Positions 35,896 to 50,270 are shown, counted from the first letter of the stretch. The stretch: 64,000 nt of DNA from Candidatus Giovannonibacteria bacterium RIFOXYD1_FULL_48_21 (GCA_001778985.1 MFIU01000004.1:3067-67066), one strand, 5' to 3'. The notes: a model not told the origin generated them from the letters alone. Made by a program: numbers and translations.

Positions 35896-37890
35896 ATGCC
35901 AAAACTACCTGATCCATTTTCTACAAAACCGACCAAAGAGCAGATTCAGACAACGCGCGAGATTTTGGACGCTATTTTTAAAGACCCCCAAGTCAAATAC
36001 GGCTTGCGGGAGTTTTCGAAACTAAAAATAGAGGAAGCTATCACGATTTTTGAAAAAGAAAAAGACAAATTTTATATCCACTGCCTCAAACGCGATAAAG
36101 ATATTGCGGTTTATGACAAAAGCAAAAATACCGGCAAGCCGGAAGAAATTATCCGTCAGCTTTGGCTTGTCAGATTGATTAGAGATTATCGCTACCCCCC
36201 CGATAGAATTGATGTTGAGGTTGACGTACATTTCGGCACAGAAGTCCACAGAAAAGCCGCCGATATAATGATTTACCAGGACGATAAGGAAACGCCCTAC
36301 ATTGTTTTTGAATTAAAGAAGCCGAAAGTTGAAGACGGGATAGATCAGTTAAAAAGCTATCTAAACTCCAAAGGTTCGCCGATTGGTGTTTGGTCCAACG
36401 GAAACGAGCGGGTTATTCTTTATCGTCCCTATCCGAAAAAATTTGAAAACAACTTGCGGGCAATCCCTCGCGTTGACCAGACAATTGAGGATGTTCTGGA
36501 AGAACGGCTTACCTTGGAAAAATTGACCTCCGACTATGATTTGAGCGAGCGCATTAAAATTTTGGAGGAACTGGTGCTTGCTAATGCCGGAGTTGATGTC
36601 TTCCAGGAAGTTTTCAAACTCATTTACGCAAAACTTTATGATGAAAAAGAAGCGCGCTCGCGCCCGGACAAAGAGGTTTATTTCCGAATGTCCAAGGACC
36701 CGAAATTTACTTTTGACATTGTTAATCGGCTATTCAAGGAATCTGTTTTGGAGTGGCCGGGAATTTTTACTCCTCACGATGAACTTCAATTATCACCCGA
36801 ACATCTTGCCGTTTGCGTTTCAGAGTTGGAAGACATAAAACTCCTTGATTCAAGCTTGGAAATTATTGACACCGCTTTTGAATATCTTTTGCCGGAAGTG
36901 GCGAAAGGCAAAAAAGGACAATACTTTACGCCTCGCCATGTGATTGATATGGCGGTAAAAATGCTCAATCCGCGCGATAAAGAATACATTGTTGACCCAG
37001 CGGCAGGGTCGGGCGGCTTTCTTATCCACGCTATGCAGTGGGTTTGGAGCCATGACTTGAAAGAAACGCCGCACGAAAAGCAGGTTGACTATGCCCGCCG
37101 GTATCTTTTCGGCATTGATTTTGACGATAAGCCGGTAAAAATCTCCCGCGCCTTGATGCTTATTGCCGGAGACGGCCGCTCGCATATTTTCAAACTTAAT
37201 TCTCTTAATCCGAAAGAATGGCAAGGTTCTGACTCTGAAAAAGAAAATGCGAGAGCAGAACTTCGCAAACTACTTCTTAAAACCGGTGATTACGAAGCAG
37301 ACCGAAACAACGAGGAAAATTTCCGCAGTTTTGCTTTTGATGTTTTACTTACCAATCCGCCGTTTGCCGGAAAAATCAAAGAGCAAATGCTATTGCGAGA
37401 GTATGAACTAGCCAAAAACAAAAAAGGTAAAATTCCTAAACAAGTCGGCCGCGATCTTCTTTTCATTGAGCGGGCGCTTCAACTAATAAAGCCCGGCGGG
37501 CGTTTAGCAATCGTCCTCCCCCAAGGCAAGCTAAACAACACGAATACCGAATACATCCGCCAGTGGTTGTTAGGTAGGGCGCGAGTTTTAGCGGTTGTCG
37601 GATTGCATGGTAACACCTTCAAACCGCATACCGGCACTAAAACCTCTCTATTATTTTTGCAGAAATGGGGCGGCGAAGCCGGAAGGCCAGAAGACGATTA
37701 CCCAATTTTTATGGCAACTTCCAAAAACTCTGGAAAAGATAATTCCGGAGAATATGTCTATAAAAAAGATGCGAAAGGAAATTTTGTTTTGGACGAACGC
37801 GGCCGCCGAATTTTACATCACGACTTGGATGAAGTTGCCGAGACATTCGTCAAATTCGCCAAAGAACAAAAATTTAGTTTTTGGAAATAA
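35896..37890 (+). CDS. restriction-modification protein: HsdR_N-like PD-(D/E)xK nuclease domain fused to gamma-class N6-adenine DNA methyltransferase (HsdM / type IIB A-subunit-like)
   Basis: N-terminal ADIMIYQDDKETPYIVFELKKPKVEDGIDQLKSY (D...ELK pattern of HsdR_N). MTase motif I VDPAAGSGGFL and motif IV LLTNPPF. Confidence 0.75.
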   Translation: MPKLPDPFSTKPTKEQIQTTREILDAIFKDPQVKYGLREFSKLKIEEAITIFEKEKDKFYIHCLKRDKDIAVYDKSKNTGKPEEIIRQLWLVRLIRDYRYPPDRIDVEVDVHFGTEVHRKAADIMIYQDDKETPYIVFELKKPKVEDGIDQLKSYLNSKGSPIGVWSNGNERVILYRPYPKKFENNLRAIPRVDQTIEDVLEERLTLEKLTSDYDLSERIKILEELVLANAGVDVFQEVFKLIYAKLYDEKEARSRPDKEVYFRMSKDPKFTFDIVNRLFKESVLEWPGIFTPHDELQLSPEHLAVCVSELEDIKLLDSSLEIIDTAFEYLLPEVAKGKKGQYFTPRHVIDMAVKMLNPRDKEYIVDPAAGSGGFLIHAMQWVWSHDLKETPHEKQVDYARRYLFGIDFDDKPVKISRALMLIAGDGRSHIFKLNSLNPKEWQGSDSEKENARAELRKLLLKTGDYEADRNNEENFRSFAFDVLLTNPPFAGKIKEQMLLREYELAKNKKGKIPKQVGRDLLFIERALQLIKPGGRLAIVLPQGKLNNTNTEYIRQWLLGRARVLAVVGLHGNTFKPHTGTKTSLLFLQKWGGEAGRPEDDYPIFMATSKNSGKDNSGEYVYKKDAKGNFVLDERGRRILHHDLDEVAETFVKFAKEQKFSFWK

Positions 37891-37899
37891 ATTACTCTT

Positions 37900-38871
37900 A
37901 TGAATACTGAAGAATATAAAAAAATAGATTGGAACAAACTACTTCGTAAGGACTTGGGCGAGTATAGTTTGGAAGTGGCGAAGCCAAATCTCGACAGAAT
38001 AAAGTCGATATTTGACGAGATTTTGAATTATCCAAACCTCGATCAGCTATCTGATAATTTTAAAAATCAGATTCAATCACAACTTAATTCCTTGGTGCAA
38101 TTTGCGAATCAGATTGTAAATAACTTTCAAAATACGAGTGAGCGTCAAACTTGGATCAATAATATAAAAAATAAGGAGTTCGAAGTTTATCAAAATCTCT
38201 CAAATATCTATGGGTATATAAAGGATTTTGATCCGGCAAGAGATGAACGGCTGAAAGATGTTATTAAAAAGTCAGAGGAACGTATAAAAAAGTTAAATGA
38301 GGATTTAAGTAAAACAGAAGCTCTTTTGCAGCAGGCGCAGAAAAAGGCAGTTCAAAGCGAAGTAATGGAATATGGAAACTTCTTTGGAAATGAGGCGGTA
38401 AAAAACGAGAGAACGGCAAAAATAAACCGATGGCTAATGTTCGGAAGTGTTGCTTTAACTGCTGTGCTCTCTGTTATCTTTCTACAAAACATCAAATTTG
38501 TTTCATCAGAAGAAATGACATTTTTTGAAAATGTCCTACAAACTATAAATGCACAAAACATACTTATAAAGTTTGTTTTGCTCTCGCTGGGCGGTTTCTT
38601 GATTGCTCATTTTTCAAAAGTACATTCAACGGAGAAAAACTTGTATAACCTCAATATCCAGCGACAAAATGCGCTTAATTCTCATAAACAAATTCTTGAT
38701 TCAGTAGTTGCTACTGAAAGTGAAAATGAGAAAGAAGTTAGAAACGCGATTTTACTTGAACTTACTAAAGCAATTTTTGCTAACCATGAGACCGGTTACT
38801 TGAAGGGTTCTAAAGATAATCCTGGGCCAGCAAGCCAGATAGTAGAGATAACAAAGACTTTACCGAAGTAA
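37900..38871 (+). CDS. hypothetical coiled-coil protein with two TM helices, embedded between the M and S genes
   Basis: 323 aa. About 170-aa Asn/Gln/Lys-rich coiled-coil N-domain, helices WLMFGSVALTAVLSVIFL and ILIKFVLLSLGGFLIAHF, and a 90-aa C-tail. No family. Confidence 0.5.
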   Translation: MNTEEYKKIDWNKLLRKDLGEYSLEVAKPNLDRIKSIFDEILNYPNLDQLSDNFKNQIQSQLNSLVQFANQIVNNFQNTSERQTWINNIKNKEFEVYQNLSNIYGYIKDFDPARDERLKDVIKKSEERIKKLNEDLSKTEALLQQAQKKAVQSEVMEYGNFFGNEAVKNERTAKINRWLMFGSVALTAVLSVIFLQNIKFVSSEEMTFFENVLQTINAQNILIKFVLLSLGGFLIAHFSKVHSTEKNLYNLNIQRQNALNSHKQILDSVVATESENEKEVRNAILLELTKAIFANHETGYLKGSKDNPGPASQIVEITKTLPK

Positions 38872-38873
38872 TC

Positions 38874-40238
38874 ATGCAGTATTCAATAATCCAAAAATCA
38901 CGACTTGAAGGTGGCCTACGGCTAGACGCGGAATTTTACCATCCGGAAAAATTAGAGGCGATGGAAAAGTTATCTAAATTCGGCATTAGCACTATTGCCG
39001 AGAATTTTCGGAACGTAAAAGAAACTTTTAACCCCCTCCGACATAAGTTAGCTACCACCCCCGCTCGCGTTTTTGATTTGTCTGATGTGAGTTCTTTTCT
39101 ACTGGAAGCAGGAGCAAAAGTAGAAAAAGCCGATGAAGTCGGCTCTACAAAAAAGATTATTCGCCAAAATGATGTTTTGATTTCTCGCTTGAGGCCTTAT
39201 CTCAAGGAAGTTTCTTTTGTGGGGTTTAATGAGGTTCAAAAACTGGCTTCAACCGAGTTTGTGGTTTTACGAAAAAAGAAGGATTCAAAGTTTCCTCCGC
39301 AAGCCCTTTTTGCATTTTTAACAACAGACGAAGTTCAAAATATTTTATTCTGGAGTCAAGGAGGAACAGAACATCCTCGCTTTTCCGAAAATCTTTTGAT
39401 GGGCTTAAAATTGCCGAAAACTTCGGAAAAGATGGCAGAAAGTATCGTAGATGATGTTAACGGCACTTACAAAAATTATCTGATATCACAAAATCTTTAC
39501 TCTCAAGCCGAGGATTTGCTGTTGGAAGAATTAGGATTGAAAGATAAAGATTTTGAGATTAAGGACGATTTGGCTTATATCGTCAATCTTTCTGAAATAA
39601 AATCCAACCATCGCGCTGACGCCGAATACTTCCAGCCGAAGTACGAAAACATTATGTCTCTAATTCGCGCGAATGGTGGAACAATGCTTGGCGATTTAGC
39701 AACGATGAAAAAAGGCATTGAGCCGGGGAGTGAGGTATATCAAGATGAGGGCAAACTATTTATTCGTGTAAGCAGCTTGTCTAAAAATGGGCTTGAAGAC
39801 AAAGACCAAAAGTATTTAAGCGATGAATTGTATCAGAAGTTAAAGAAAAATTACGAGCCGAAAGTTGGCGAGATTTTACTAACCAAAGACGCAACGCCAG
39901 GCACCGCTTATGTAGTGAAAGAGCCGATTGAGGGGATTGTTTCGAGCGGCATTTTACGCTTGAAGTTAAAGAATGAAAAGGTGGAAAATGAATATCTGGC
40001 ATTGTGTCTTAATTCCGTAATCGGACAAACTCAAGCGGAGCGCGATGGTGGGGGTTCTATCATTACACACTGGAGACCGGAACAAATCAAAAATGTTTTA
40101 ATTCCGATTTTACCCAAACCCACCCAGCAGAAAATCGCCGACTTAGTCCAAAAATCCCACGAAGCCCGCTCAAAAGCAAAACAACTTTTAGAACAAGCCA
40201 AATATAAAGTTGAACAATTGATTGAATCTAAAAAATAA
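38874..40238 (+). CDS. hsdS: type I-like specificity subunit HsdS (two target-recognition domains)
   Basis: Internal duplication with conserved LDAEFYHPEKLEAMEKL and ADAEYFQPKYENIMSLI spacer motifs typical of HsdS. Confidence 0.75.
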   Translation: MQYSIIQKSRLEGGLRLDAEFYHPEKLEAMEKLSKFGISTIAENFRNVKETFNPLRHKLATTPARVFDLSDVSSFLLEAGAKVEKADEVGSTKKIIRQNDVLISRLRPYLKEVSFVGFNEVQKLASTEFVVLRKKKDSKFPPQALFAFLTTDEVQNILFWSQGGTEHPRFSENLLMGLKLPKTSEKMAESIVDDVNGTYKNYLISQNLYSQAEDLLLEELGLKDKDFEIKDDLAYIVNLSEIKSNHRADAEYFQPKYENIMSLIRANGGTMLGDLATMKKGIEPGSEVYQDEGKLFIRVSSLSKNGLEDKDQKYLSDELYQKLKKNYEPKVGEILLTKDATPGTAYVVKEPIEGIVSSGILRLKLKNEKVENEYLALCLNSVIGQTQAERDGGGSIITHWRPEQIKNVLIPILPKPTQQKIADLVQKSHEARSKAKQLLEQAKYKVEQLIESKK

Positions 40239-40258
40239 TAATGTTAATTTTATAAATT

Positions 40259-41179
40259 ATGGCCAACTTATATTGGAAAAAGGATAAAAAAATATTTGCT
40301 GCCACAGAAACTCCATTTAAAACAGAAGAGGAGCTTGAGCATTATCTTTTAGATACGCGAGGAATTCTTAGCGATATTTATATTTTAAATAGACAAGTGA
40401 GGGCGAGGGCGGTTTCTGGTATAGAAATTCCGGACATGGTTGGAGTGGATAGCGAAGGAACGATTGTGATTATTGAGAACAAAAATATTCCCGTTGATGA
40501 AAAAATTATTTCGCAAGTGCTTAATTATGCACTTTGGGCAGAAGCAAATCCAGATTCAATAAAGAATCTTTGGCTTGAAGCCGAACAAGAGGGCACAGAG
40601 CCCGAGTGGGACAACCTACAAATTCGCATTATTATTGTCGCGCCTGAAATAAAACAACACTTGGCAAAATTTATATCGAAAATAGGATACCCGATCGATT
40701 TATTAGAAATCAAAAAATTCAACATAGGTAAAGACGAATTTATAGTTCTTAATAAGATTGAGGCCAATGTTTTTACTGCAAAGCCGGTTCATGGAAAAAG
40801 GAGCTATGATATCGCTTACTACGCAAAAGGGCATAATAAAGAGAGTGTTAAAAAATTTGAACAAGTTGTAAATCGCGTTGAGAGTTTTATTCACAAAAAT
40901 GGATGGAAATTGGAAAAGAAATTTAATCAAGGATATATAGGTTTCAAATACGGCTTCCCATTGGTTTTTGGTATCCAATGGCTTGGAAGTAGGTCATTTG
41001 GTTTCTTTTTCAAAATGCCTAAATCAAAAATGAAGAAAATCATTGTCCCTGGCCTTGAGTTTAGAGGATATATTGATAGGTGGAGTCAAGTTGAATACAA
41101 AATTAACTCGCCCGATTTTGATATTAAAAAATTAACTCCCTTATTTTTGGCTTCCTACAAATACATAAGGGGGGGGTAA
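40259..41179 (+). CDS. PD-(D/E)xK nuclease-fold protein with uncharacterised C-terminal domain
   Basis: IPDMVGVDSEGTIVIIENKNIPVDEKIISQVLNYALW fits the D-x(n)-E-x-K restriction-endonuclease-like core. About 170-aa C-terminal domain unknown. Confidence 0.5.
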   Translation: MANLYWKKDKKIFAATETPFKTEEELEHYLLDTRGILSDIYILNRQVRARAVSGIEIPDMVGVDSEGTIVIIENKNIPVDEKIISQVLNYALWAEANPDSIKNLWLEAEQEGTEPEWDNLQIRIIIVAPEIKQHLAKFISKIGYPIDLLEIKKFNIGKDEFIVLNKIEANVFTAKPVHGKRSYDIAYYAKGHNKESVKKFEQVVNRVESFIHKNGWKLEKKFNQGYIGFKYGFPLVFGIQWLGSRSFGFFFKMPKSKMKKIIVPGLEFRGYIDRWSQVEYKINSPDFDIKKLTPLFLASYKYIRGG

Positions 41180-41234
41180 AAATTTGTGGCGCACCAGCTA
41201 ACGCTGGCACAAATTCCGTCGGCGCAAAAAGCGA

Positions 41235-41277
41235 GGGCGCGGCGGAAGGGGGGTGTGGGGGGAATTCCGCCGCGCCC
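41235..41277. repeat. perfect 13-bp GC-rich inverted repeat (GGGCGCGGCGGAA / TTCCGCCGCGCCC) with G-rich loop GGGGGGTGTGGGGGGAA
   Basis: Read directly from the sequence, just downstream of the island's last gene. Confidence 0.6.
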
Positions 41278-41501
41278 GAGCCGGAAGCGAAGCGTCAGAA
41301 ATCAGTGTCAGGATTTTCGCGAAAAAAAGTTCGGATTTCGTTCAGGGTGTGGAGCCAGTAGCAAACTTAAGTCATTTTCAGAAAAATTTTTGCGTGCGAC
41401 GCAAAGCGTCGCCCATTGTTTTGCGGGGATTTCTTCAACTTTTTTATTTCGTAAAGTCAGGTTCGAGCCGAATATTTTTTGGAGAACTATAAATAATTTT
41501 T

Positions 41502-41615
41502 ATGGACGAAGAAAAAGAACGGCAAAAAGAAATAAGAGAAAAGCTGGAAAGCGAGGGGCTTGATCCTGACGAGTTTGACGAGGACGAGCAAGAACAACTC
41601 GCCGATTTACTTTAA
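41502..41615 (+). CDS. acidic miniprotein (37 aa)
   Basis: MDEEKERQKEIREKLESEGLDPDEFDEDEQEQLADLL. TATAAAT-like -10 upstream. Stop lies 6 nt before the Zn-ribbon ORF. Confidence 0.35.
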   Translation: MDEEKERQKEIREKLESEGLDPDEFDEDEQEQLADLL

Positions 41616-41621
41616 TCATAT

Positions 41622-41795
41622 ATGGTCAAATTCACACAAAAAGACGACAAAGAACTATATCAATGTGAGGAGTGCGGTTTTCACTATGAATACCGCGAGT
41701 GGGCGGAAAAATGCGAAGCGTGGTGCCGGGAACATAAGAATTGCAATATTGAGATTACTGCTCATGCATTTGAATTATTCTATTTGGGTTATTAA
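41622..41795 (+). CDS. Zn-ribbon miniprotein (57 aa), paralog of 50103..50270
   Basis: MVKFTQKDDKELYQCEECGFHYEYREWAEKCEAWCREHKNCNIEITAHAFELFYLGY. Cys4-5 ribbon. About 65 percent identical to the second copy. Not in the ORF track. Confidence 0.55.
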   Translation: MVKFTQKDDKELYQCEECGFHYEYREWAEKCEAWCREHKNCNIEITAHAFELFYLGY

Positions 41796-41820
41796 TTAAA
41801 AAGAGCTAAAATATAAACAT

Positions 41821-42582
41821 ATGTTTGAACTCAAAAATAAAGTTGCGTTGGTCACCGGCGGGAGGCGCGGCATGGGGAGAACTCATGCTTTGGCTTTGGC
41901 CGGTCAGGGAGCAAAAGTTATTGTTACCGACATTGATGCCAAAGAATGTCTGCCGGTGGTTGAGGAAATAAAATCAAAAGGCGGCGATGCAGCCTGCTTC
42001 AAGATGGATGTTTCAAACGCAGAGGAGGTTAATCAAGTTTTTGACGAGGCCATTAAACAATTCGGTCGCTTGGATATTTTGGTAAATAACGCCGGCATTT
42101 ATTTCTCAAAGCCGGCCTCAGAACTTACTGAAGCGGACTGGGACAAGATGATTGATATTAACCTTAAGGGGCAGTTTCTGTGTGCCCAACGAGCCGCAAA
42201 AGAGATGACAAAGAACAAGTGGGGTCGGATTATTAACATTGCATCGGTTGCCTCCGGGCAGGTTGGTGTCGGCATTGCCGGCGGCGCGCACTATACCGCC
42301 TCAAAAGGAGGAATTATTGGGATGTCGGAAACTCTGGCGGTCGAGTGGGCCCCGCTCGGAATTAATGTAAATGTCGTAGCTCCCGGCGCGATTGATACTC
42401 CGATGGTGCAGGCGGCACAACTGCCAAAGGAAGCAATGGACGCCATGCTCTCCAGAGTTCCATTAAAAAGAATCGGCAGGCCGGAAGAAGTTTCTGCAAT
42501 GGTTGTCTTTCTCGCTTCAGAGGAAGCAAGTTATGTCACTGGTGCCACATTTTATGTGGACGGTGGCTGGTTGGCCGTATAA
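41821..42582 (+). CDS. SDR-family oxidoreductase (FabG-like)
   Basis: VALVTGGRRGMGRTHALAL glycine motif, NNAG, YTASKGG catalytic Tyr/Lys. Confidence 0.8.
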   Translation: MFELKNKVALVTGGRRGMGRTHALALAGQGAKVIVTDIDAKECLPVVEEIKSKGGDAACFKMDVSNAEEVNQVFDEAIKQFGRLDILVNNAGIYFSKPASELTEADWDKMIDINLKGQFLCAQRAAKEMTKNKWGRIINIASVASGQVGVGIAGGAHYTASKGGIIGMSETLAVEWAPLGINVNVVAPGAIDTPMVQAAQLPKEAMDAMLSRVPLKRIGRPEEVSAMVVFLASEEASYVTGATFYVDGGWLAV

Positions 42583-42610
42583 AAACCGAGACATAAATCC
42601 TACCAGCAAT

Positions 42611-42667
42611 TCACCCCGTTAGAGGCAGAGGCACGCTGCGAGCCCTCGCGGCCTCTAACGGGGTTCA
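42611..42667. promoter_or_regulatory. inverted pair of the CCCCGTTAGA motif family (TCACCCCGTTAGAGGC ... GCCTCTAACGGGGTTCA)
   Basis: Long hairpin-capable palindrome 28 nt after the SDR stop and about 190 nt upstream of mscS. A TTGACT follows 25 nt downstream. Confidence 0.45.
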
Positions 42668-42859
42668 CTATCTTAACCTACCAATAGTTGACTATCTTGA
42701 ATGGGGAAATCGAGCCTTTTATTTCCCAAATTGCGGTTCGAAATGCGTGAAGCGCGCGGAACCAGTATAAAACTTCTCTCATTTTCAGAAAAACAGGGAA
42801 AGTATTATATTTGGCTCCCGAATTAAAACCTTCTCAAACTTATGTTAAAATAAATAAGT

Positions 42860-43717
42860 ATGTTCGTGCTTCAAAAATTTGTTCAAAATATAACACCTTG
42901 GTTTCTTGATCATGGCGTAAAAATTGTCGCAATCATTATTGTTGCTTATCTTATCCGTAAATTTGCCGGAATTTTTATTGAAAGAATCATAAGAAAGATT
43001 ATTATTTCCGATCATTTTTTGACTAAAGAAGCGGAAAAAAAACGAGAAGATACTCTTATCCGAATTTTCACCGTCTCACTTGGAATACTTATTTGGCTCT
43101 TGGCCCTTTTGATGATTCTTCAGGAAACGGGTATCGCCATAGGCCCGCTTCTTGCGGCTGCAGGAATTGCTGGTCTTGCTTTCGGCTTTGGGGGACAGTA
43201 TCTCATTCGCGATCTTATCAGCGGCCTTTTTATCATTTTGGAAAATCAGTACCGTCTTGGAGATGTGGCGTGTTTTGACGGAACTTGCGGATTGGTTGAA
43301 GACATCAGCATGCGAATGACAACCTTGCGAGATCTTGACGGAATTGTGCATCATGTTCCCCACGGAGAAATTAAAAGGGTCTCCAATCTTTCAAAATATT
43401 ACGCCAGAGTTAATCTTAATATCGGGATTGCGTATAACTCTGATTTAGAAAAAGTAATTGGCGTGGTAAACCGAGTTGGAAAAGAGCTCGCCGAAGATGT
43501 GCAATGGAAAGAATTTATAACAAAGCCTCCACAGTTTTTGCGCGTTGATGATTTCGCGGACTCGGCGATTATAATTAAAATCCTCGGGGAGACAAAGCCC
43601 ATCAAACAATGGGATGTTGCCGGAGAACTCCGCAAACGGCTCAAAATCGCATTTGACAAAGAGAATATAGAAATTCCATTTCCTCAAAGGGTTATACATT
43701 CCGCGAATAAATCTTAG
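42860..43717 (+). CDS. mscS: small-conductance mechanosensitive channel (MscS family)
   Basis: Three TM helices then GGQYLIRDLISGLFIILENQYRLGDV (pore-helix / beta-domain junction). Confidence 0.75.
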   Translation: MFVLQKFVQNITPWFLDHGVKIVAIIIVAYLIRKFAGIFIERIIRKIIISDHFLTKEAEKKREDTLIRIFTVSLGILIWLLALLMILQETGIAIGPLLAAAGIAGLAFGFGGQYLIRDLISGLFIILENQYRLGDVACFDGTCGLVEDISMRMTTLRDLDGIVHHVPHGEIKRVSNLSKYYARVNLNIGIAYNSDLEKVIGVVNRVGKELAEDVQWKEFITKPPQFLRVDDFADSAIIIKILGETKPIKQWDVAGELRKRLKIAFDKENIEIPFPQRVIHSANKS

Positions 43718-44988
43718 TGGATATGCCCCGAACATATCTTGAAAAAGTCATTTTTTCAAAACAAGTACGCCGGGCGGACTTTTTAAGATTTATGCCGGAG
43801 GGGCAAAAAAGGGAATTATTGAAGCAGGCCTCTTATCTTCAGGGGAAAAGAGTAGTGCATATCAATGCCGTCGCCGATGGCGGAGGTGTCGCGGAAATAC
43901 TCGCAAGCCTCATTCTATACCTGCGCTCTTTGGGTGTTGAAAGCGACTGGTATTTTATCAATCCCGACGTCGGCAAAAGATTTTTTGAGACAACCAATAA
44001 GATTCATAACGCCCTGCAAGGCGCACCGGTAAAAATCAGCGGCCGGGAATGGGATGAATATAAAGAGATAAGCAGACGTATCGCCGAGGAACTGGAAAAA
44101 ATTGATTGCGACATCTTGGCTATAAACGATTCCCAGCTTCTTTTGGCAGGGTATCTCGCGCATCTTACTAAACATAAAATATATTTCAGCCATATTGATA
44201 CCTCCTCGGTTTTTAAACCGGTTTGGAAGAAGCTTCTCCCCGCCATTAAATTTTATCATCGAATTGTTTTCAGCAATCGTGATTTTGTAAACGGCAGTCT
44301 GCCCGGCCGCAAAGTAAAAATTTTCACGCCAGCGATTGACCCGCTGGCTCCCAAACAAAAGATTGTTTCCCAAAAAGAAGCCCGTTTATATTTAAAAAAA
44401 TACGGCGGCGTCCCAGCGCATTGCCCTCTCATCGCGCAGATATCGCGTTTTGATATTTGGAAAAACCCAATGGGAGTTATTCAGGCTTTTCGCATAGTCC
44501 AAAATACGTATCCCAATGCGCAGCTGATTTTGGTCGGCTTTAATACCGCCAATGATAATCCCGCGGCGAAGACGGTTTATAAAGATATTGCGGCAGTTGC
44601 CGGCAAATCCCGCGAAATTTCTTTGTTTTTTGACCCCAAAGGTAAAAATGTTTTGGAGTTTACCGTTATGACGCAAAATGGGGCTGATATCATCGTTCAA
44701 AATTCCATCAAGGAGGGATTTGGCTTAGTGGTAACGGAGGCAATGTGGAAACGACAAACGGTAATTGGCGGCCCGGCTTTAGGGATAAGAAAACAAATTA
44801 GCAACGGCAAAAACGGCTTTATTGTAAAATCTCCAGAGGAAATGGCTCAAAAAATCATTTTTCTTCTATCCCATCCGGCGAAAAGAAGGTTGGTGGGAAA
44901 CTCGGCGAGAAAAACCGTTTTTGGGAGTTTTTTATTCCCACGGTTGGTTTTAGATCATCTTAAACTGTATCGGTCTTGTTTAAAATAA
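43717..44988 (+). CDS. GT4-family glycosyltransferase (TreT-like)
   Basis: HINAVADGGGVAEILASL resembles the TreT N-terminal signature. C-terminal GT-B Rossmann fold with E-x7-E-like region. Confidence 0.55.
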   Translation: MDMPRTYLEKVIFSKQVRRADFLRFMPEGQKRELLKQASYLQGKRVVHINAVADGGGVAEILASLILYLRSLGVESDWYFINPDVGKRFFETTNKIHNALQGAPVKISGREWDEYKEISRRIAEELEKIDCDILAINDSQLLLAGYLAHLTKHKIYFSHIDTSSVFKPVWKKLLPAIKFYHRIVFSNRDFVNGSLPGRKVKIFTPAIDPLAPKQKIVSQKEARLYLKKYGGVPAHCPLIAQISRFDIWKNPMGVIQAFRIVQNTYPNAQLILVGFNTANDNPAAKTVYKDIAAVAGKSREISLFFDPKGKNVLEFTVMTQNGADIIVQNSIKEGFGLVVTEAMWKRQTVIGGPALGIRKQISNGKNGFIVKSPEEMAQKIIFLLSHPAKRRLVGNSARKTVFGSFLFPRLVLDHLKLYRSCLK

Positions 44989-45023
44989 AATCAGATGATA
45001 CTCTCTAAGATGAGTAGACTCGG

Positions 45024-46562
45024 ATGATTTTTCCACAAAAAAAATCCAGACTGAAAATTCTTTTTGTATCGACCGAAGAAACCACTTTTGCCAAAGTGGG
45101 CGGATTGGGCGAGGTGATGTTTTCCCTGCCGCGGGCTTTAAACGAGCTTGGGCATGACGCCAGGGTGATGCTTCCCCGCTACGGCACGATTGACCCTTAC
45201 CTCCATAACCTAAAACTAGAGTACGAAGGCCTGCAGGTTCCCACGGCTCCGGAAAACGGCGGGAAGCGGCTAGTTTGCAACGTGCTCCGTTTTGACCCCA
45301 CTTCAGAGACCAGAAGTCCGGTAACGACATATTTTTTGGAAAACCGGGAATACTATGAACTGCGCTCCAACGCCTACGGCTACAAGGACGACCCCGTGCG
45401 CTTCGCGCTTTTGTCGCGCGGGGCTTTGGAGTTTCTGGCGGACGGGGCAGACTGGCTTCCGGATGTAATCGTGGCCACGGACTGGATGACGGGTTTTATT
45501 CCCAATCTTCTCGCCACGGATTATGCTGAATATAAACGCCTAAAAAATATCGCAACAGTCTTCTCCATCCATAACCTCGAATCCCAGGGACCTTTAAGAC
45601 ACCATCGCTTCATCCCCGAGATGGAGCGGGACGACGGCTATGGTTCCCTGCCGGATTTTTTCTCGGAGCGTATGGAGAATATAAACGCCATGCGCCGCGG
45701 CATTCGCTATGCGGATGTGATTAACACCGTCTCCCTGAAGTACGCCGAAGAGATTTGCACCCCGGAGTTCGGAGAGGGTCTGGACGGGCTTTTGAGGGAG
45801 AGGCGGGAAAGGCTTTTTGGAATTTTGAACGGTCTTGACTACGAAACCAACGATCCGGCCCGGGACCCTCTGCTCGCCAAAAATTTTAATTCCAAAAATC
45901 TGGAGGCCAGAAAAGAAAACAAGGCCGCGCTTCAAAAGCGCTTCGGGCTTGAGTCGGATAAAAACAGGTTTGTGGCCGCAATCGCCTCGCGCCTGACAAG
46001 ACAGAAGGGATTTGAACTTTTATTCAAGGTTGCGGATACCTTTTTGAAAACCAGCCTCGCCCAGCTTATCGTCGTGGGCGAGGGCGACCCGGAGATTATG
46101 ACCGCTTTCAAGGAGCTTGAGAAAAAATGGCCCGGCCAGGTCAGGACCCACCTCCAGTTTGATGATGAACTTCCGCGTCTGATTTTCGCCGGAGCGGATG
46201 CGATTCTCGTCCCTTCTTATTTCGAGCCCTCGGGCCTTATCCAGATGGAAGCCATGCGCTACGGCGCCGTGCCCGTGGCGCGCCAGACCGGCGGACTCGC
46301 GGACACCGTCGAGGATTTCTCGCCGGAAGAAAAACGCGGCACCGGTTTTCTTTTTGAAGAGTATGAACCCTCCTCACTCCTGGTGGCGCTCGTCCGGACC
46401 TGGGAGAACTGGCGGCAAAAAGAGGCCTGGAAGAAAATCCAGAAGAGGGCGATGGAGAAAGATTTCTCGTGGCTGGCTTCAGCCCGGGAATACGAAAAGC
46501 TCTTCCGGCTCGCCCTTAAACTCCGCGCCAAAAACGGCGCTCCGAAAACGGACTTAGAATAA
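45024..46562 (+). CDS. glgA: glycogen synthase (GT5)
   Basis: N-terminal KVGGLGEV motif. Length and C-terminal motifs as in GlgA. Confidence 0.85.
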   Translation: MIFPQKKSRLKILFVSTEETTFAKVGGLGEVMFSLPRALNELGHDARVMLPRYGTIDPYLHNLKLEYEGLQVPTAPENGGKRLVCNVLRFDPTSETRSPVTTYFLENREYYELRSNAYGYKDDPVRFALLSRGALEFLADGADWLPDVIVATDWMTGFIPNLLATDYAEYKRLKNIATVFSIHNLESQGPLRHHRFIPEMERDDGYGSLPDFFSERMENINAMRRGIRYADVINTVSLKYAEEICTPEFGEGLDGLLRERRERLFGILNGLDYETNDPARDPLLAKNFNSKNLEARKENKAALQKRFGLESDKNRFVAAIASRLTRQKGFELLFKVADTFLKTSLAQLIVVGEGDPEIMTAFKELEKKWPGQVRTHLQFDDELPRLIFAGADAILVPSYFEPSGLIQMEAMRYGAVPVARQTGGLADTVEDFSPEEKRGTGFLFEEYEPSSLLVALVRTWENWRQKEAWKKIQKRAMEKDFSWLASAREYEKLFRLALKLRAKNGAPKTDLE

Positions 46563-46647
46563 CGATAAAAATAGCAAAAAAAAGAAAGAGGTAAACCCGT
46601 CTCACATCCAAAGGCCCGGTCAAGGTTCAACACCTGCCAGGCCTTTT

Positions 46648-47673
46648 TTAACGCTTTATCAGAAGCCTCGTTAAATCCGAGATAATTTTTGATACGCGGT
46701 CCACAAACCCTTGAAGTTCCACCCGCAGTCCTGTGACTAAGCGTGGGTTCACCGTAAATTCTTCTCCGGAATCCGTGCGCAGGACAAACGAGCCGTCCGC
46801 GTTGACTTGAATTATTGTTCCAGAAACAATCTCGCGTTGGGACGGCTTGGATAAGTCGCGCAGAATCAGCGCTTCAATCACTTGAGTATCTTCATCATAA
46901 AGCCCATAAATGTTGACGCGGTCTCCTGGGGCAATTTGGCTAAAACCGATTAGATTTTTGTTGCGGTCAAGAAGATTCGTGCCGCTTTTCACTTCAATGA
47001 CATATTTTCTGTAAAGATTGGCGGGAAAACGCGTCTCGTCCACTCCCGTGGCTTTGAGCGGCATAGGGCAGGCCATAGAGCGAGCGGGAGAATTGCCTTC
47101 CGAACCATAGTCATAACAGGGGTGGGAGAAATTCTGAACGGCCGTGATGGTCGCCGGCGTAGTCGAAGAAGAAATGCTCACAATATCGAGATTATTCAAC
47201 TGAATGAATTGGCGTTCTTTGGGTTTCGAGAGATTTCGCAAAATCAAGGCCTCGACTGTGTTTGTGTCCGCGTCGTAAAAGCCGTAGATGTTGAGCCGGT
47301 CATTCACGCCAAAATCGGCAAAAGCCCCGCGCGAGCGGTCGCGCAGAAGAAAGATAGTCTGGGAGCCGGTTTTAATTGTATATACAATTTGGGGGGCAAT
47401 AGATTGGCCTAAAGGCACTGGGCAAGGGAAAGAAGCTCCGCGGCTTTGCTCGAGGGTTTCAAATTTTAGACAGGGGTTTGGAACATCGTAGTTCGTGACA
47501 GCCCGAAGTTCGCCTGCCGAGACAATTTCGGTTATTCGGAGATTATTGAACTGAACAATTTCGTCAGATTGATTGCCCGCGGTTCCTGGAGTAACGGTTC
47601 CCGTTCCGGTCTGGGCTACCGCCGTCCCGGCAAGGATTAAAAACAAACTCATCGGCAGAACTAACTTTTTCAT
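46648..47673 (-). CDS. secreted protein with three ~100-aa tandem repeats (paired-Cys modules)
   Basis: Signal peptide. Repeats share NNLxI...PCxxxG...CPxPL...IYGxYDxDTxxIEALILRxLSKP. Confidence 0.5.
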   Translation of the reverse strand: MKKLVLPMSLFLILAGTAVAQTGTGTVTPGTAGNQSDEIVQFNNLRITEIVSAGELRAVTNYDVPNPCLKFETLEQSRGASFPCPVPLGQSIAPQIVYTIKTGSQTIFLLRDRSRGAFADFGVNDRLNIYGFYDADTNTVEALILRNLSKPKERQFIQLNNLDIVSISSSTTPATITAVQNFSHPCYDYGSEGNSPARSMACPMPLKATGVDETRFPANLYRKYVIEVKSGTNLLDRNKNLIGFSQIAPGDRVNIYGLYDEDTQVIEALILRDLSKPSQREIVSGTIIQVNADGSFVLRTDSGEEFTVNPRLVTGLRVELQGFVDRVSKIISDLTRLLIKR

Positions 47674-47777
47674 ATCTTCATATTAGCACTAATAACGTAA
47701 ATACCCCAGCTTGGAAATATGGTACTATTTTGGCATGTCTGAAAAGCAAAAGGGAAGCATAAGAAATATAACGAATT

Positions 47778-48320
47778 ATGAAAATTGAAGACGTAAAAAC
47801 GGCAATCAAGGTAGGCGATTTTGTACTAAGAAAAGATAATCGGAATAAGATAGATATTAAATATTCACCCGACCTTGATAAAGAAGTTCTTATTGACGAC
47901 TCAGCGAGAATATATTTGATCGTTCAAGACGGGATCATAAAGAAAATAGGTGGCTCTATTCAAAAGGGAGGCATTAAAGGAACTGTAAGTTTTTATATTG
48001 GCGCTATGACGGGGAGTCCTGGCAGGCCCAGGTTTATTTTACATTTACTCATTGAAAAAGCTCTTAAAAGCAAATCAAAAATGGAATTACATATGATTAC
48101 TTCCCCAAAAACTATGGCTAGGGTGAGTGGTTTATTTAGAACTAAGAAAATGAAAATTGCTAGTTTTAAGGAGATGGAAGATTTATGTAAGTCCGATTAC
48201 TATTCCAGAGAAAAGAAATATCCAGATTGGAACTTTCAAGAGAACCATAAACCATATCCCCCAGAATTAGAAAGGAAGTTCATGGCATATCATAGGAGGC
48301 GTTTAGGCAGAAAAAACTAA
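47778..48320 (+). CDS. hypothetical protein
   Basis: 180-aa ORF, by eye AT-rich. Confidence 0.4.
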   Translation: MKIEDVKTAIKVGDFVLRKDNRNKIDIKYSPDLDKEVLIDDSARIYLIVQDGIIKKIGGSIQKGGIKGTVSFYIGAMTGSPGRPRFILHLLIEKALKSKSKMELHMITSPKTMARVSGLFRTKKMKIASFKEMEDLCKSDYYSREKKYPDWNFQENHKPYPPELERKFMAYHRRRLGRKN

Positions 48321-49852
48321 TTTCTGGGCGGACAAAAAATTATTATCTCGTGAGATTCTTTTACATGGTTGCCGTTGCCGTTTTTTCGGTTTAATCCGAT
48401 TCTTGTTTCTCCTTGTCCCATAGTATATTGCCAACTAGGGAAGAATTGCTGAAATTCTTTGTAGTATTCTCTTATTGTGGGACAGTTGTTATAAGAAAGA
48501 ACAAAACCTCCTTTGTGGTTTTTTAATAAATCTCTCAAAGCCTCGTGCGGAAACCCATTATGATGGACTGGTATATTCCTCATTGGATAAATTCCTTTAA
48601 ACATTTTTGAATCTTTTCCGATATAGTAAGGGGGGTCGCAGTAAAGAAAATCATTTGGGTGATTTTTAATTACCTCCTGAAAATCTACACACTCTACTTT
48701 CAGATTATTCGGGTCAAAATCCCGAATATTTTCTATCATTCTTTTGTATCTTTTGTCGTTTAGGTAAATCTTAGACGACCAACCCATAAAGCCGGGGCCG
48801 TAGGATAAGTTAAAATTATAAACAAAATAAACTGCCAAAGTTAGCGGATCTAATTTTGTTTTTTTCTTCCAAACATCATTTAAAATCAAACGTATTTTTT
48901 CAAAGGTTGTTTTATTTGGCTTTAATTCTTTCAGTTTTTTGTAAAGAAGGTCTGATTTTTCTATTTGGAATTTCCAATAATTACAGAGAATATCGAAGAT
49001 ATCGTAGCCGATAACTTCTAGGCCCAGCTCCTTGCTCATGGCTATTTCAATAGAGCCGCCCCCAAAAAATGGAGAGACAATCCTGGTTATGTTACCGGGC
49101 AATAATTCAACTACATGTCCGACCGCTAAACTTTTCCCTCCCGCATATCTTATTGGAGAAAGAACAACTCTTTTATATTTATTTTGACTATTTGAATTTT
49201 TGCTTCTTATACGATCTAAAAAGACTTTCTTTTTGTAGGCGAGCGTGTTGTCTTTGGCACCATTTTCTAGGTTTCTTATAATTCTAACTACAACACCCCT
49301 TATTTCTACTTCCTTGCGATAAATTGGCAACATCGCCTGGTTCGCTGGCTGTAATTTAATACGGCCTTTCTCTCTATAAATCTTCTTGAGCGTTACTTCA
49401 TTGTCATCAATAATTGCGACAATAGTCTGTCCGTCATCAGCAGTTTTTTGTTTACGAATTACAACAACATCACCATCAAAAATTCCATCACCAATCATAC
49501 TATCCCCTGCAACTTTTAGGGCGTAATGTTCACCATGCTTACCTATAAAATCTCCAGGAATAGAAATTTTTTCTGGTATCTCAATCGCCTCAATGGGGTG
49601 CCCGGCGGCGATGGTGCCCAAAAGAGGAATCTTGATTAATTTTTCTGCGGATGAAATTTCAATGCTCCGGCGCTGGTTTTTCCGTTTATTTAGATATCCC
49701 TTTTCTCTTAGCGCCTCGATATGCTGGTGGATGTTAGAAACAGAGGAAAGGCGCAGGCGCTTTCGTATGTCCTCAAGCGAGGGCGCAAAGCCGCGCTTTT
49801 TGGTGTAGGAGGTTACAAAATCCAAGACCTGCTTCTGCCGAGGAGTTAGCAT
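48317..49852 (-). CDS. LexA repressor (HTH + S24 autopeptidase) fused to Dam-class (D12) N6-adenine DNA methyltransferase
   Basis: Residues 1-205 hold a LexA-type HTH, the AG cleavage site (TIAAGHP), VAGDSMIGDGIFDGD (catalytic Ser), TLKK (catalytic Lys) and VVRIIRN. After a 35-aa linker come PIRYAGGKS, SPFFGGGS (motif I) and LYCDPPYY (motif IV), as in Dam. Single uninterrupted 511-codon frame. Confidence 0.7.
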   Translation of the reverse strand: MLTPRQKQVLDFVTSYTKKRGFAPSLEDIRKRLRLSSVSNIHQHIEALREKGYLNKRKNQRRSIEISSAEKLIKIPLLGTIAAGHPIEAIEIPEKISIPGDFIGKHGEHYALKVAGDSMIGDGIFDGDVVVIRKQKTADDGQTIVAIIDDNEVTLKKIYREKGRIKLQPANQAMLPIYRKEVEIRGVVVRIIRNLENGAKDNTLAYKKKVFLDRIRSKNSNSQNKYKRVVLSPIRYAGGKSLAVGHVVELLPGNITRIVSPFFGGGSIEIAMSKELGLEVIGYDIFDILCNYWKFQIEKSDLLYKKLKELKPNKTTFEKIRLILNDVWKKKTKLDPLTLAVYFVYNFNLSYGPGFMGWSSKIYLNDKRYKRMIENIRDFDPNNLKVECVDFQEVIKNHPNDFLYCDPPYYIGKDSKMFKGIYPMRNIPVHHNGFPHEALRDLLKNHKGGFVLSYNNCPTIREYYKEFQQFFPSWQYTMGQGETRIGLNRKNGNGNHVKESHEIIIFCPPRN

Positions 49853-50102
49853 ATATTTATTTTAACGATATCTGGCATCTCTTGCTTGTGGATAACTTTC
49901 GGTTTTCTTTCGGTATATAAGTAGTAAAATTAAACTGCCAACAAAAAAATTAGGAAAGTAGTTCTACAAGCTCACTATAAATAAATTTATGAACTCATGA
50001 AAAATTATTCAAAAACTGGCGGGAGGAAAGGAATTCCAGGGTACCGCACCCCGGTGCATTTTCGCTCGCGGAAGAATTTGAAAAATGTAAAAATGAAAAC
50101 AT

Positions 50103-50270
50103 ATGGTGAAAGAAATCGCAAAAGACGATAAAGAACTCTACCAGTGCGAAGAGTGCGGTCTGCATTACGCCAAGAAAGAAACCGCGGAAAAATGCGAGGC
50201 CTGGTGCCGGGAGCACAAAAGCTGCAACTTGGAGATAATCAAGGAAGCCGTCAAAACAGAAAATTTTTGA
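50103..50270 (+). CDS. Zn-ribbon miniprotein (55 aa), paralog of 41622..41795
   Basis: MVKEIAKDDKELYQCEECGLHYAKKETAEKCEAWCREHKSCNLEIIKEAVKTENF. Confidence 0.55.
   Translation: MVKEIAKDDKELYQCEECGLHYAKKETAEKCEAWCREHKSCNLEIIKEAVKTENF

Follow-up and report, generated by a model that had tools for sequence, protein, structure and literature searches.

The TRASH module occurs in CopM, in CopR and in transporters (PMC7830388), and the core of the small metal-binding domain of LpCopA binds Cu(I) via three sulfurs and has a sensor role (PMC11970713). Copper-resistance (copA) clusters hold MerR, CopA, a cupredoxin, DUF2933 and ICMT (PMC8478169). Here we describe two cysteine-rich miniproteins that appear to belong to a module of comparable use. 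They are encoded on a 64,000-nt stretch of the genome of Candidatus Giovannonibacteria bacterium RIFOXYD1_FULL_48_21 (GCA_001778985.1, MFIU01000004.1:3067-67066), hereafter the window, in whose coordinates they and their surroundings are given. By their profile scores both are members of DUF7128 (PF23447), a known yet uncharacterised family. This family probably provides a metal- or thiol-handling module that is associated with membrane metal and thiol-redox systems, a reading to which we assign a probability of about one half. A third mini-gene, encoding a highly acidic 37-aa peptide, precedes the first of the two genes and has a distribution of its own.

Copy 1 (41622..41795, + strand, 57 aa, 'CNIEITAHA' subfamily) and copy 2 (50103..50270, + strand, 55 aa, 'CNLEIIK' subfamily) translate exactly as an original prediction from the DNA alone had given them. 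In a Pfam scan they score 28 and 33 bits against PF23447, above its curated gathering cut-off of 25.7 bits, and cover profile positions 1-37 of 44. BLASTP aligns the two proteins with 36 of 50 residues identical (72%, E = 2e-26); over the full lengths the identity is about 63-65%, in agreement with the roughly 65% first estimated. Within the window, tblastn with a 40-aa core retrieves these two copies only. Both genes are present in the JGI, ENA and Logan gene calls, and neither is in the NCBI annotation of this genome. The SDR, LexA-Dam and RpoD proteins of the window match named NCBI entries exactly, which assigns it to Candidatus Giovannonibacteria.

The substitution pattern indicates that both open reading frames (ORFs) are real genes under strong purifying selection. 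Different synonymous codons are used for 18 of the 36 residues common to both copies, and Nei-Gojobori counting gives a saturated pS (~1) and a pN of 0.19. The omega of copy 1 is 0.08 relative to the L054 orthologue and 0.046 relative to that of L047, another Giovannonibacteria genome (range 0.046-0.081). The original prediction had named two observations that would speak against it, namely no conservation outside this genome and a dN/dS near 1 between the copies. The opposite was found on both counts, since DUF7128 is widespread elsewhere and the pN of 0.19 stands against saturated synonymous sites.

The two proteins are indeed paralogues, of old standing. Copy 1 shares 81-83% amino acid identity with 'CNIEITAHAEENK' subfamily proteins elsewhere (L046, L042, L054 and L048) and copy 2 up to 81% with 'CNLEIIK' proteins of other genomes. 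Each is thus nearer to proteins of other genomes than to its partner in the window (72%), which points to old subfamilies and not to a local duplication. Several copies per genome are common: a fused and a free copy coexist in several assemblies, and L063 carries a tandem pair. The last nine codons of copy 1 (from 41768; FELFYLGY) bear no relation to the '...HAEENKK' ending found in its subfamily, and its nucleotide homology with L054 and L047 stops at 41767, a break that suggests an earlier rearrangement between copy 1 and SDR-side sequence.

DUF7128 is a large family. A word-indexed protein search returned 190 homologues, nearly all 50-80 aa long and many bearing a precomputed PF23447 label, while an exhaustive profile search yielded 882 clusters at 50% identity (445 with E <= 1e-10). 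Among species-representative genomes (GTDB) about 403 stretches were confirmed, and the best 80 are nearly all from Patescibacteria, the Candidate Phyla Radiation (CPR). The Pfam model finds 49 of 149 diverse representatives at E <= 0.001 and therefore covers the CPR branch weakly. The Pfam entry describes an uncharacterised family, and no mention of DUF7128 was found in the literature searched. No relatives of the miniproteins were detected on 2.9 million viral contigs (IMG/VR), 50,697 phage records (INPHARED) and 72,556 plasmids (PLSDB), collections that probably sample CPR mobile elements poorly. Elsewhere DUF7128 has acquired in-frame insertions of about 10-15 residues, such as 'RPSNPSGRPELMSNG', at various positions (L077 4290-4499, P0156, P0195, L055 and L089). 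Two proteins that clustered with the miniproteins, one of 1028 aa and a patatin-like one of 278 aa, seem by eye to be unrelated to them and probably reflect an artefact of the clustering.

The module comprises about 45 residues arranged as Y13-x-C-x2-C-x3-Y22-x5-A28-x2-C-x3-C, followed by W34, C41-N42 and I45. In 81 aligned sequences C15, C18, Y22, C31, W34, C41, N42 and I45 are invariant and C35 is conserved in at least 90%; Y13, Y22, A28, W34, N42 and I45 reach 97-100%. The same cysteine pattern holds among the 149 representatives. The conserved cysteines are thus five (C15, C18, C31, C35 and C41), not the four initially counted. An AlphaFold2 model of copy 2, built from the 81-sequence alignment (pLDDT 90.3), places strands at residues 2-7 and 10-15 and helices at 25-38 and 43-46, with C15/C18 at the hairpin and C31/C35 one turn apart on the helix. 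A zinc ribbon, as the proteins had been labelled, consists of two hairpin knuckles with a CxxC each; this candidate was rejected because the second pair of DUF7128 is a C-x3-C inside the predicted helix 25-38. The Pfam match to Zn_ribbon_9 reaches 14 bits, below the cut-off of 29. DUF7128 is accordingly modelled as a beta-beta-alpha finger with five cysteines, so that the general description as paralogous, cysteine-rich proteins of metal-finger type stands while the ribbon label does not.

The classical C2H2 finger offers a partial structural parallel. Spacing and hydrophobic positions follow its consensus, (F/Y)-x-C-x2-4-C-x3-F-x5-L-x2-H-x3-5-H, the predicted hairpin likewise precedes a helix on which the second pair of ligands lies, and a profile search of the PDB matched the first halves of C2H2 fingers, for example in PRDM9 and Aart. 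DUF7128 differs, however, in having Cys in place of both His and Ala at position 28, in a conserved C-terminal extension (W34, C41-N42, I45), and in being net acidic instead of basic and single instead of arrayed. Net charge is -5 for copy 1 (pI 5.0) and -3 for copy 2 (pI 5.3), with a family median of -1, and helix positions 26, 29, 32 and 37 are mostly Glu. These values do not fit a basic DNA-reading surface on the helix. Foldseek returned no significant structural match for the model (best E 0.5, TM ~0.52). The best target-normalised TM-score, 0.67, belongs to 6skg_Bo, a 43-residue C2H2 protein on the archaeal ribosome, and this match is likewise not significant.

The proteins to which the module is fused carry most of the functional evidence. 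In 28 of 80 genome loci it stands as a domain at the end of a longer polypeptide. Recognised combinations include DUF7128+HMBD+P1B-ATPase (L073), ICMT/PEMT+DUF7128 (L084), DUF7128+TM+DUF3105 with a transmembrane (TM) segment (L060), HMBD+DUF7128 (P0174), HMA+DUF7128 (P0185) and, in four representatives, DUF2933+DUF7128. In the census of the 149 representatives DUF2933 (5) is the sole recurrent Pfam partner, with HMBD and HMA found once each. Three of the five gene families of the published copA clusters are therefore direct fusion partners of DUF7128. No helix-turn-helix (HTH), nuclease, methyltransferase (MTase) or nucleic-acid-binding partner was found among the 149 representatives or the 80 loci. 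In one Liptonbacteria locus (L061 5001-7568) the module is in frame with an 856-aa G6PD-6PGD polypeptide (glucose-6-phosphate and 6-phosphogluconate dehydrogenase).

The commonest fusion partner, present in most of the 28 fused loci, is a membrane protein of about 550 aa that bears the motif 'AASACPVCGS' within a TM segment and ends in a domain rich in Cys. In L016 (5001-6638), DUF7128 is N-terminal on such a CPR membrane protein, whose Cys-rich C-terminal domain reads 'YRPCCNNSTFFQDCNHGS...GCGV', and similar fusions were seen in L014-L032, L043, L055, L065, L068, L085, L086 and L089. The fusion gene lies in a conserved operon with genes for Cys/His-rich secreted or membrane proteins. Neither the partner nor its operon neighbours matched anything in Pfam, NCBIfam or PDB sequences.

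The neighbours of stand-alone copies were surveyed by Pfam on 150 proteins encoded within two genes of about 42 loci. The most frequent families are Thioredoxin_2 (9), Redoxin (8), DsbD_TM (8), DSPc (5), Pyr_redox_2 (4), Glutaredoxin (3) and MerC (3). A recurring gene order consists of a TlpA-like redoxin, DUF7128, a dual-specificity phosphatase and CcdA/DsbD_TM (e.g., L034 4015-6392; also L033, L035, L036, L038, L051, L052, L063 and L087), often with a thioredoxin reductase or a glutaredoxin nearby. A P1B-ATPase gene adjoins a stand-alone DUF7128 gene in five loci, and one Kaiserbacteria locus consecutively encodes Cu-oxidase, ArsR, glutaredoxin, DUF3179, DUF7128 and DoxX. Catalytic MTase families are not among the frequent neighbours, and of MTase-related families the survey contains only Methylase_S (3 times). 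The conserved synteny with MTase genes that the original prediction had proposed to look for was thus not seen, the census being led by redox families.

From the fusions to HMA, HMBD, DUF2933, ICMT and P1B-ATPase and from the redox and metal neighbours we infer a metal-handling role. DUF7128 would be a cytosolic thiolate metal-binding module in which the first four cysteines hold the metal, either a structural Zn or an ion that is sensed or trafficked, and C41 supplies a further thiol. It would serve membrane-bound metal and thiol-redox systems from their cytoplasmic side, and the stand-alone proteins of the window would be soluble metal buffers, chaperones, sensors or regulatory partners. The probability of one half given above applies to this role of DUF7128 as a metal- or thiol-handling module; metal binding itself, the identity of the metal and a chaperone or sensor role are each suggested by context.

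The same neighbourhoods can also be read without metal. DUF7128 could be a component or regulator of a thiol-disulfide relay that feeds or gates CcdA/DsbD-type proteins and extracytoplasmic redoxins. Redoxin/thioredoxin-like and DsbD_TM families lead the census, the redoxin-DUF7128-phosphatase-CcdA order recurs together with thioredoxin reductase and glutaredoxin, the membrane partner of about 550 aa has cytoplasmic, TM and extracytoplasmic cysteine groups reminiscent of DsbD, and copy 2 lies within 1.3-3 kb of Pyr_redox and VKOR-thioredoxin genes. Such a relay, however, leaves the HMA, HMBD, DUF2933, ICMT and P1B-ATPase fusions unexplained, as it has no need of them. Moreover, the four-Cys beta-beta-alpha pattern would be expected of a metal site rather than of a CxxC redox pair, and the redox association is found mainly in the 'L[ED]II' subfamily, so we regard a pure relay function as unlikely. 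Still less probable, in our view, is a generic structural zinc finger for protein-protein or ribosome/RNA contacts whose genomic contexts are incidental. The contexts are very heterogeneous, copy 2 lies beside a cold-shock gene, the G6PD-6PGD polypeptide carries the module in frame, and the highest target-normalised TM-score is that of the ribosome-bound 6skg_Bo. Yet the recognised fusion partners are non-random and share one functional theme, and the fold match to 6skg_Bo is not significant.

A further explanation is closer to the original prediction, which had suggested either a mobile cargo module or a small regulator associated with foreign DNA. DUF7128 would then be a nucleic-acid-binding or regulatory zinc finger tied to restriction-modification (R-M) and defence islands, controlling R-M genes or travelling with them. 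Its C2H2-like spacing and weak likeness to DNA-binding fingers and to the archaeal ribosome-bound protein fit this idea, as does the location of copy 1-like genes: local tblastn probes found type I HsdM/HsdS within 4 kb of 5 of 17 copy 1-like genes vs. 3 of 64 others (Fisher p = 0.009), with a distance of 3 nt between the HsdS stop and the start of the copy 1-like gene in L029 and L046. In addition, the DUF7128 gene of L010 follows a phage-type integrase, and copy 1 is paired with the acidic ORF, a marker of defence-island edges. Against it, the net charge of the module is negative and acidic side chains are conserved along the helix, which argues against a DNA-reading finger. Its recognised Pfam fusion partners are metal-handling or membrane proteins, with no HTH, nuclease or MTase among them, and catalytic MTase families are not top neighbours. 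One HsdS type accounts for four of the five R-M-adjacent loci, so the enrichment reflects few independent events. A related strain contig (L100) retains the acidic ORF and copy 1 without the R-M island, and the viral, phage and plasmid collections, in which CPR mobile elements are probably scarce, yielded no DUF7128. We therefore consider a role in controlling R-M genes improbable, and a small DNA regulator does not fit the charge and the fusion partners. The two copies, being old subfamilies, are not one repeated cargo either. What persists of the proposed association with foreign DNA is the enrichment of copy 1-like genes after type I R-M genes; mobility and MTase synteny found no support, and the DNA-regulator role is unlikely. 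The metal- or thiol-handling module remains our preferred reading of DUF7128.

The acidic mini-gene (41502..41615, + strand, 37 aa) has the net charge of -12 that its first description as a highly acidic peptide preceding copy 1 would imply (pI 4.05) and contains no Pfam domain. It lies 6 nt upstream of copy 1 in the same frame and ends with TAA. This bicistron is conserved in L054 and L047 with 85-88% nucleotide identity, the homology being confined to 41492-41767, and gene callers annotated the acidic ORF in L095-L102. Its omega is 0.07-0.22. Among 32 unique homologues conservation extends from the ATG to the stop, and the variability of the three codon positions is 0.058/0.048/0.178, about three times higher at the third than at the first and second, which indicates conservation by coding constraint. 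RNA or DNA structure was rejected as the cause of this conservation (RNAalifold -3.3 kcal/mol; single-sequence z-scores -1.2 and -0.7). Synonymous divergence of the acidic ORF is below that of the adjacent Zn gene with p = 0.002, 0.07 and 0.76 in three pairs and, being significant in one of three, is suggestive only. The family comprises about 70 protein clusters, all of 29-69 aa and with 'hypothetical' names only. AlphaFold2 predicts a helix-loop-helix (pLDDT 91), and the model has no structural match in the PDB. In-frame insertions of about 10-15 residues occur here as well (P0358, P0366, P0374, P0376 and P0380), e.g., 'PRYHPPSAELRGK'; in L056 an insertion of about 300 nt splits the ORF, and L116 has two copies 3.5 kb apart with four genes between them.

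Further relatives were sought with a degenerate pattern at the DNA level and with the peptide extended in frame to 40 aa. The metagenome scan gave 78 loci, about 40 of them with a near-identical 37-aa ORF. A DUF7128 gene follows within 400 nt in 7 of these ~40, and in genomes the acidic ORF is present at 2 of 17 copy 1-like loci. A toxin-antitoxin or otherwise obligate pair was rejected for want of fixed co-occurrence. The genes after the acidic ORF, often at a distance of 5-54 nt, include TspO, helicases (DEAD, HRDC), AAA ATPases, NYN and an unknown family of about 175 aa, overall a mixture of accessory and housekeeping functions. The upstream gene is co-directional in 29 of 32 cases. Upstream families comprise Eco57I, TaqI_C and MmeI-type MTases, a D12 MTase and LexA-Dam, as well as OLD-type AAA_15+TOPRIM, AbiV, a reverse transcriptase, SocA and SNase, and PADLOC identifies type IIG enzymes there (lowest E 1.8e-296). 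Three long contigs repeat the arrangement of the window, in that the acidic ORF is the last gene of a cluster with HsdS or a Dam MTase and unknown genes. No conserved partner gene was found on either side, the 33 immediately upstream genes representing nearly as many families.

The R-M or defence clusters that have the acidic ORF at their 3' edge represent about 35 distinct contexts (loci L106-L190). Judged by this distribution, the acidic ORF forms a conserved family in its own right, located where such islands end on the 3' side, and its link with R-M and defence genes is much stronger than that of the DUF7128 protein. A genuine residual association with R-M island edges thus exists; it concerns mainly the acidic ORF and, to a lesser degree, the copy 1 subfamily. 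The acidic miniprotein could modulate the nucleases or methylases of an island, by restriction alleviation or in an anti-restriction-like way, or its gene could serve as the recombination anchor of a hotspot for defence cargo. A combined and more tentative proposal, which we put forward as a possibility short of even odds, is that the acidic ORF, sometimes with a copy 1-type DUF7128 gene, constitutes a conserved module at the end of CPR R-M and defence islands, and that, separately, DUF7128 would be an unrecognised class of cytosolic heavy-metal-binding domain that plays the role of HMA, TRASH or HMBD.

In the window this cassette follows a type I R-M island (35896..41179, + strand) that lies outside the module and consists, all on the + strand, of HsdM (35896-37890; Pfam N6_Mtase/HSDR_N_2/Eco57I), an unknown gene (37900-38871), HsdS (38874-40238; Pfam Methylase_S) and a second unknown gene (40259-41179). 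Copy 1 is therefore located downstream of R-M genes, as had been described. The AT-rich accessory regions reported beside both copies were likewise recovered, with a GC content of 0.33-0.43 vs. 0.47-0.54 in the flanks (0.34-0.43 in the island). Strain alignment places the right boundary of the island at ~41375, about 127 nt upstream of the acidic ORF, and a terminator-like hairpin at 41396-41412 separates island and cassette. Strain contig L100 is 99.7% identical to window positions 41375-45040 and has L25/DnaX/GIY-YIG upstream instead of the island. Since L100 keeps both genes of the cassette, these are to be counted with the backbone. In L099 a different segment replaces 41271-41377, and in L047 an unrelated type I system lies upstream of the same acidic-Zn cassette. 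The strain-variable island and the different system of L047 suggest that the site may be a defence hotspot. Just past the last island gene, at 41235-41277, we found a perfect GC-rich inverted repeat of 13 nt (GGGCGCGGCGGAA / TTCCGCCGCGCCC) with a 17-nt loop. The 65-nt segment around it (41229-41293) is 91% identical to L015 7226-7286 from Vogelbacteria and could represent either a terminator or a short palindromic element that both genomes share. An Rfam search of the upstream regions (E <= 1) gave no more than two snoRNA matches near copy 1, both below threshold, and no match near copy 2.

The surroundings of copy 2 are of a different kind. A 511-aa fusion of a LexA DNA-binding domain, an S24 peptidase and a D12 (Dam-type) MTase (48317..49852, - strand; Pfam; exact match to NCBI HBT81530.1 from Ca. 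Giovannonibacteria) is divergent from copy 2 and 250 nt away, so that the neighbourhood to a LexA-MTase region was correctly recognised. All 24 contigs read show identical neighbours of copy 2, and LexA-Dam, DUF7128, PEBP and Csp are still found near one another in L077, a more distant relative (82% nucleotide identity). Csp (cold-shock protein) and PEBP are also its neighbours in the window, and the Pyr_redox and VKOR-thioredoxin genes follow at 1.3-3 kb. Judging by this gene order, copy 2 sits in conserved backbone. Of the two loci that had looked horizontally acquired, the R-M island is strain-variable (L100, L099) and the LexA-Dam gene beside copy 2 is conserved backbone. LexA_DNA_bind and MethyltransfD12 were also seen upstream of acidic ORFs in other genomes.

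CPR (Patescibacteria) genomes are small and rich in uncharacterised miniproteins that standard annotation skips. The probable link of DUF7128 to heavy-metal and thiol-redox membrane systems provides a testable function for a family of about 900 clusters, and the acidic mini-gene is a possible sequence marker for CPR defence islands and a candidate new small R-M regulator.

Compared with the described metal-handling modules, DUF7128 would resemble them in use and differ from them in build. TRASH/YHS is likewise a small Cys4 module (C-x2-C ... C-x3-C) that is free or fused to heavy-metal transporters and metal proteins, whereas the spacer between the cysteine pairs, reportedly 19-22 residues in TRASH, is 12 residues in DUF7128, which also has a fifth invariant cysteine. 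No Pfam match to YHS or TRASH was obtained for the window proteins even at E <= 10. Free in the majority of cases and otherwise fused to P1B-ATPase, HMA, HMBD, DUF2933 or ICMT among others, DUF7128 is therefore used like TRASH without being a TRASH member. HMA (CopZ/Atx1) and the HMBD of LpCopA (PF19335) offer a second parallel: both are small cytosolic thiolate sites for metal, and DUF7128 shares a polypeptide with HMA in P0185, with HMBD in P0174 and with HMBD and a P1B-ATPase in L073. The fold of HMA is nevertheless ferredoxin-like, beta-alpha-beta-beta-alpha-beta with a GMxCxxC loop, as opposed to the predicted beta-beta-alpha fold of DUF7128, with no kinship in sequence or fold, and the window proteins have no Pfam match to HMA (PF00403) or HMBD. 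In the proposed usage DUF7128 would stand beside HMA/CopZ, archaeal TRASH/CopM and the CopA HMBD core, all free proteins or terminal domains of P1B-ATPases, and its architecture suggests that a C2H2-type scaffold was recruited as a bacterial metal-handling domain.

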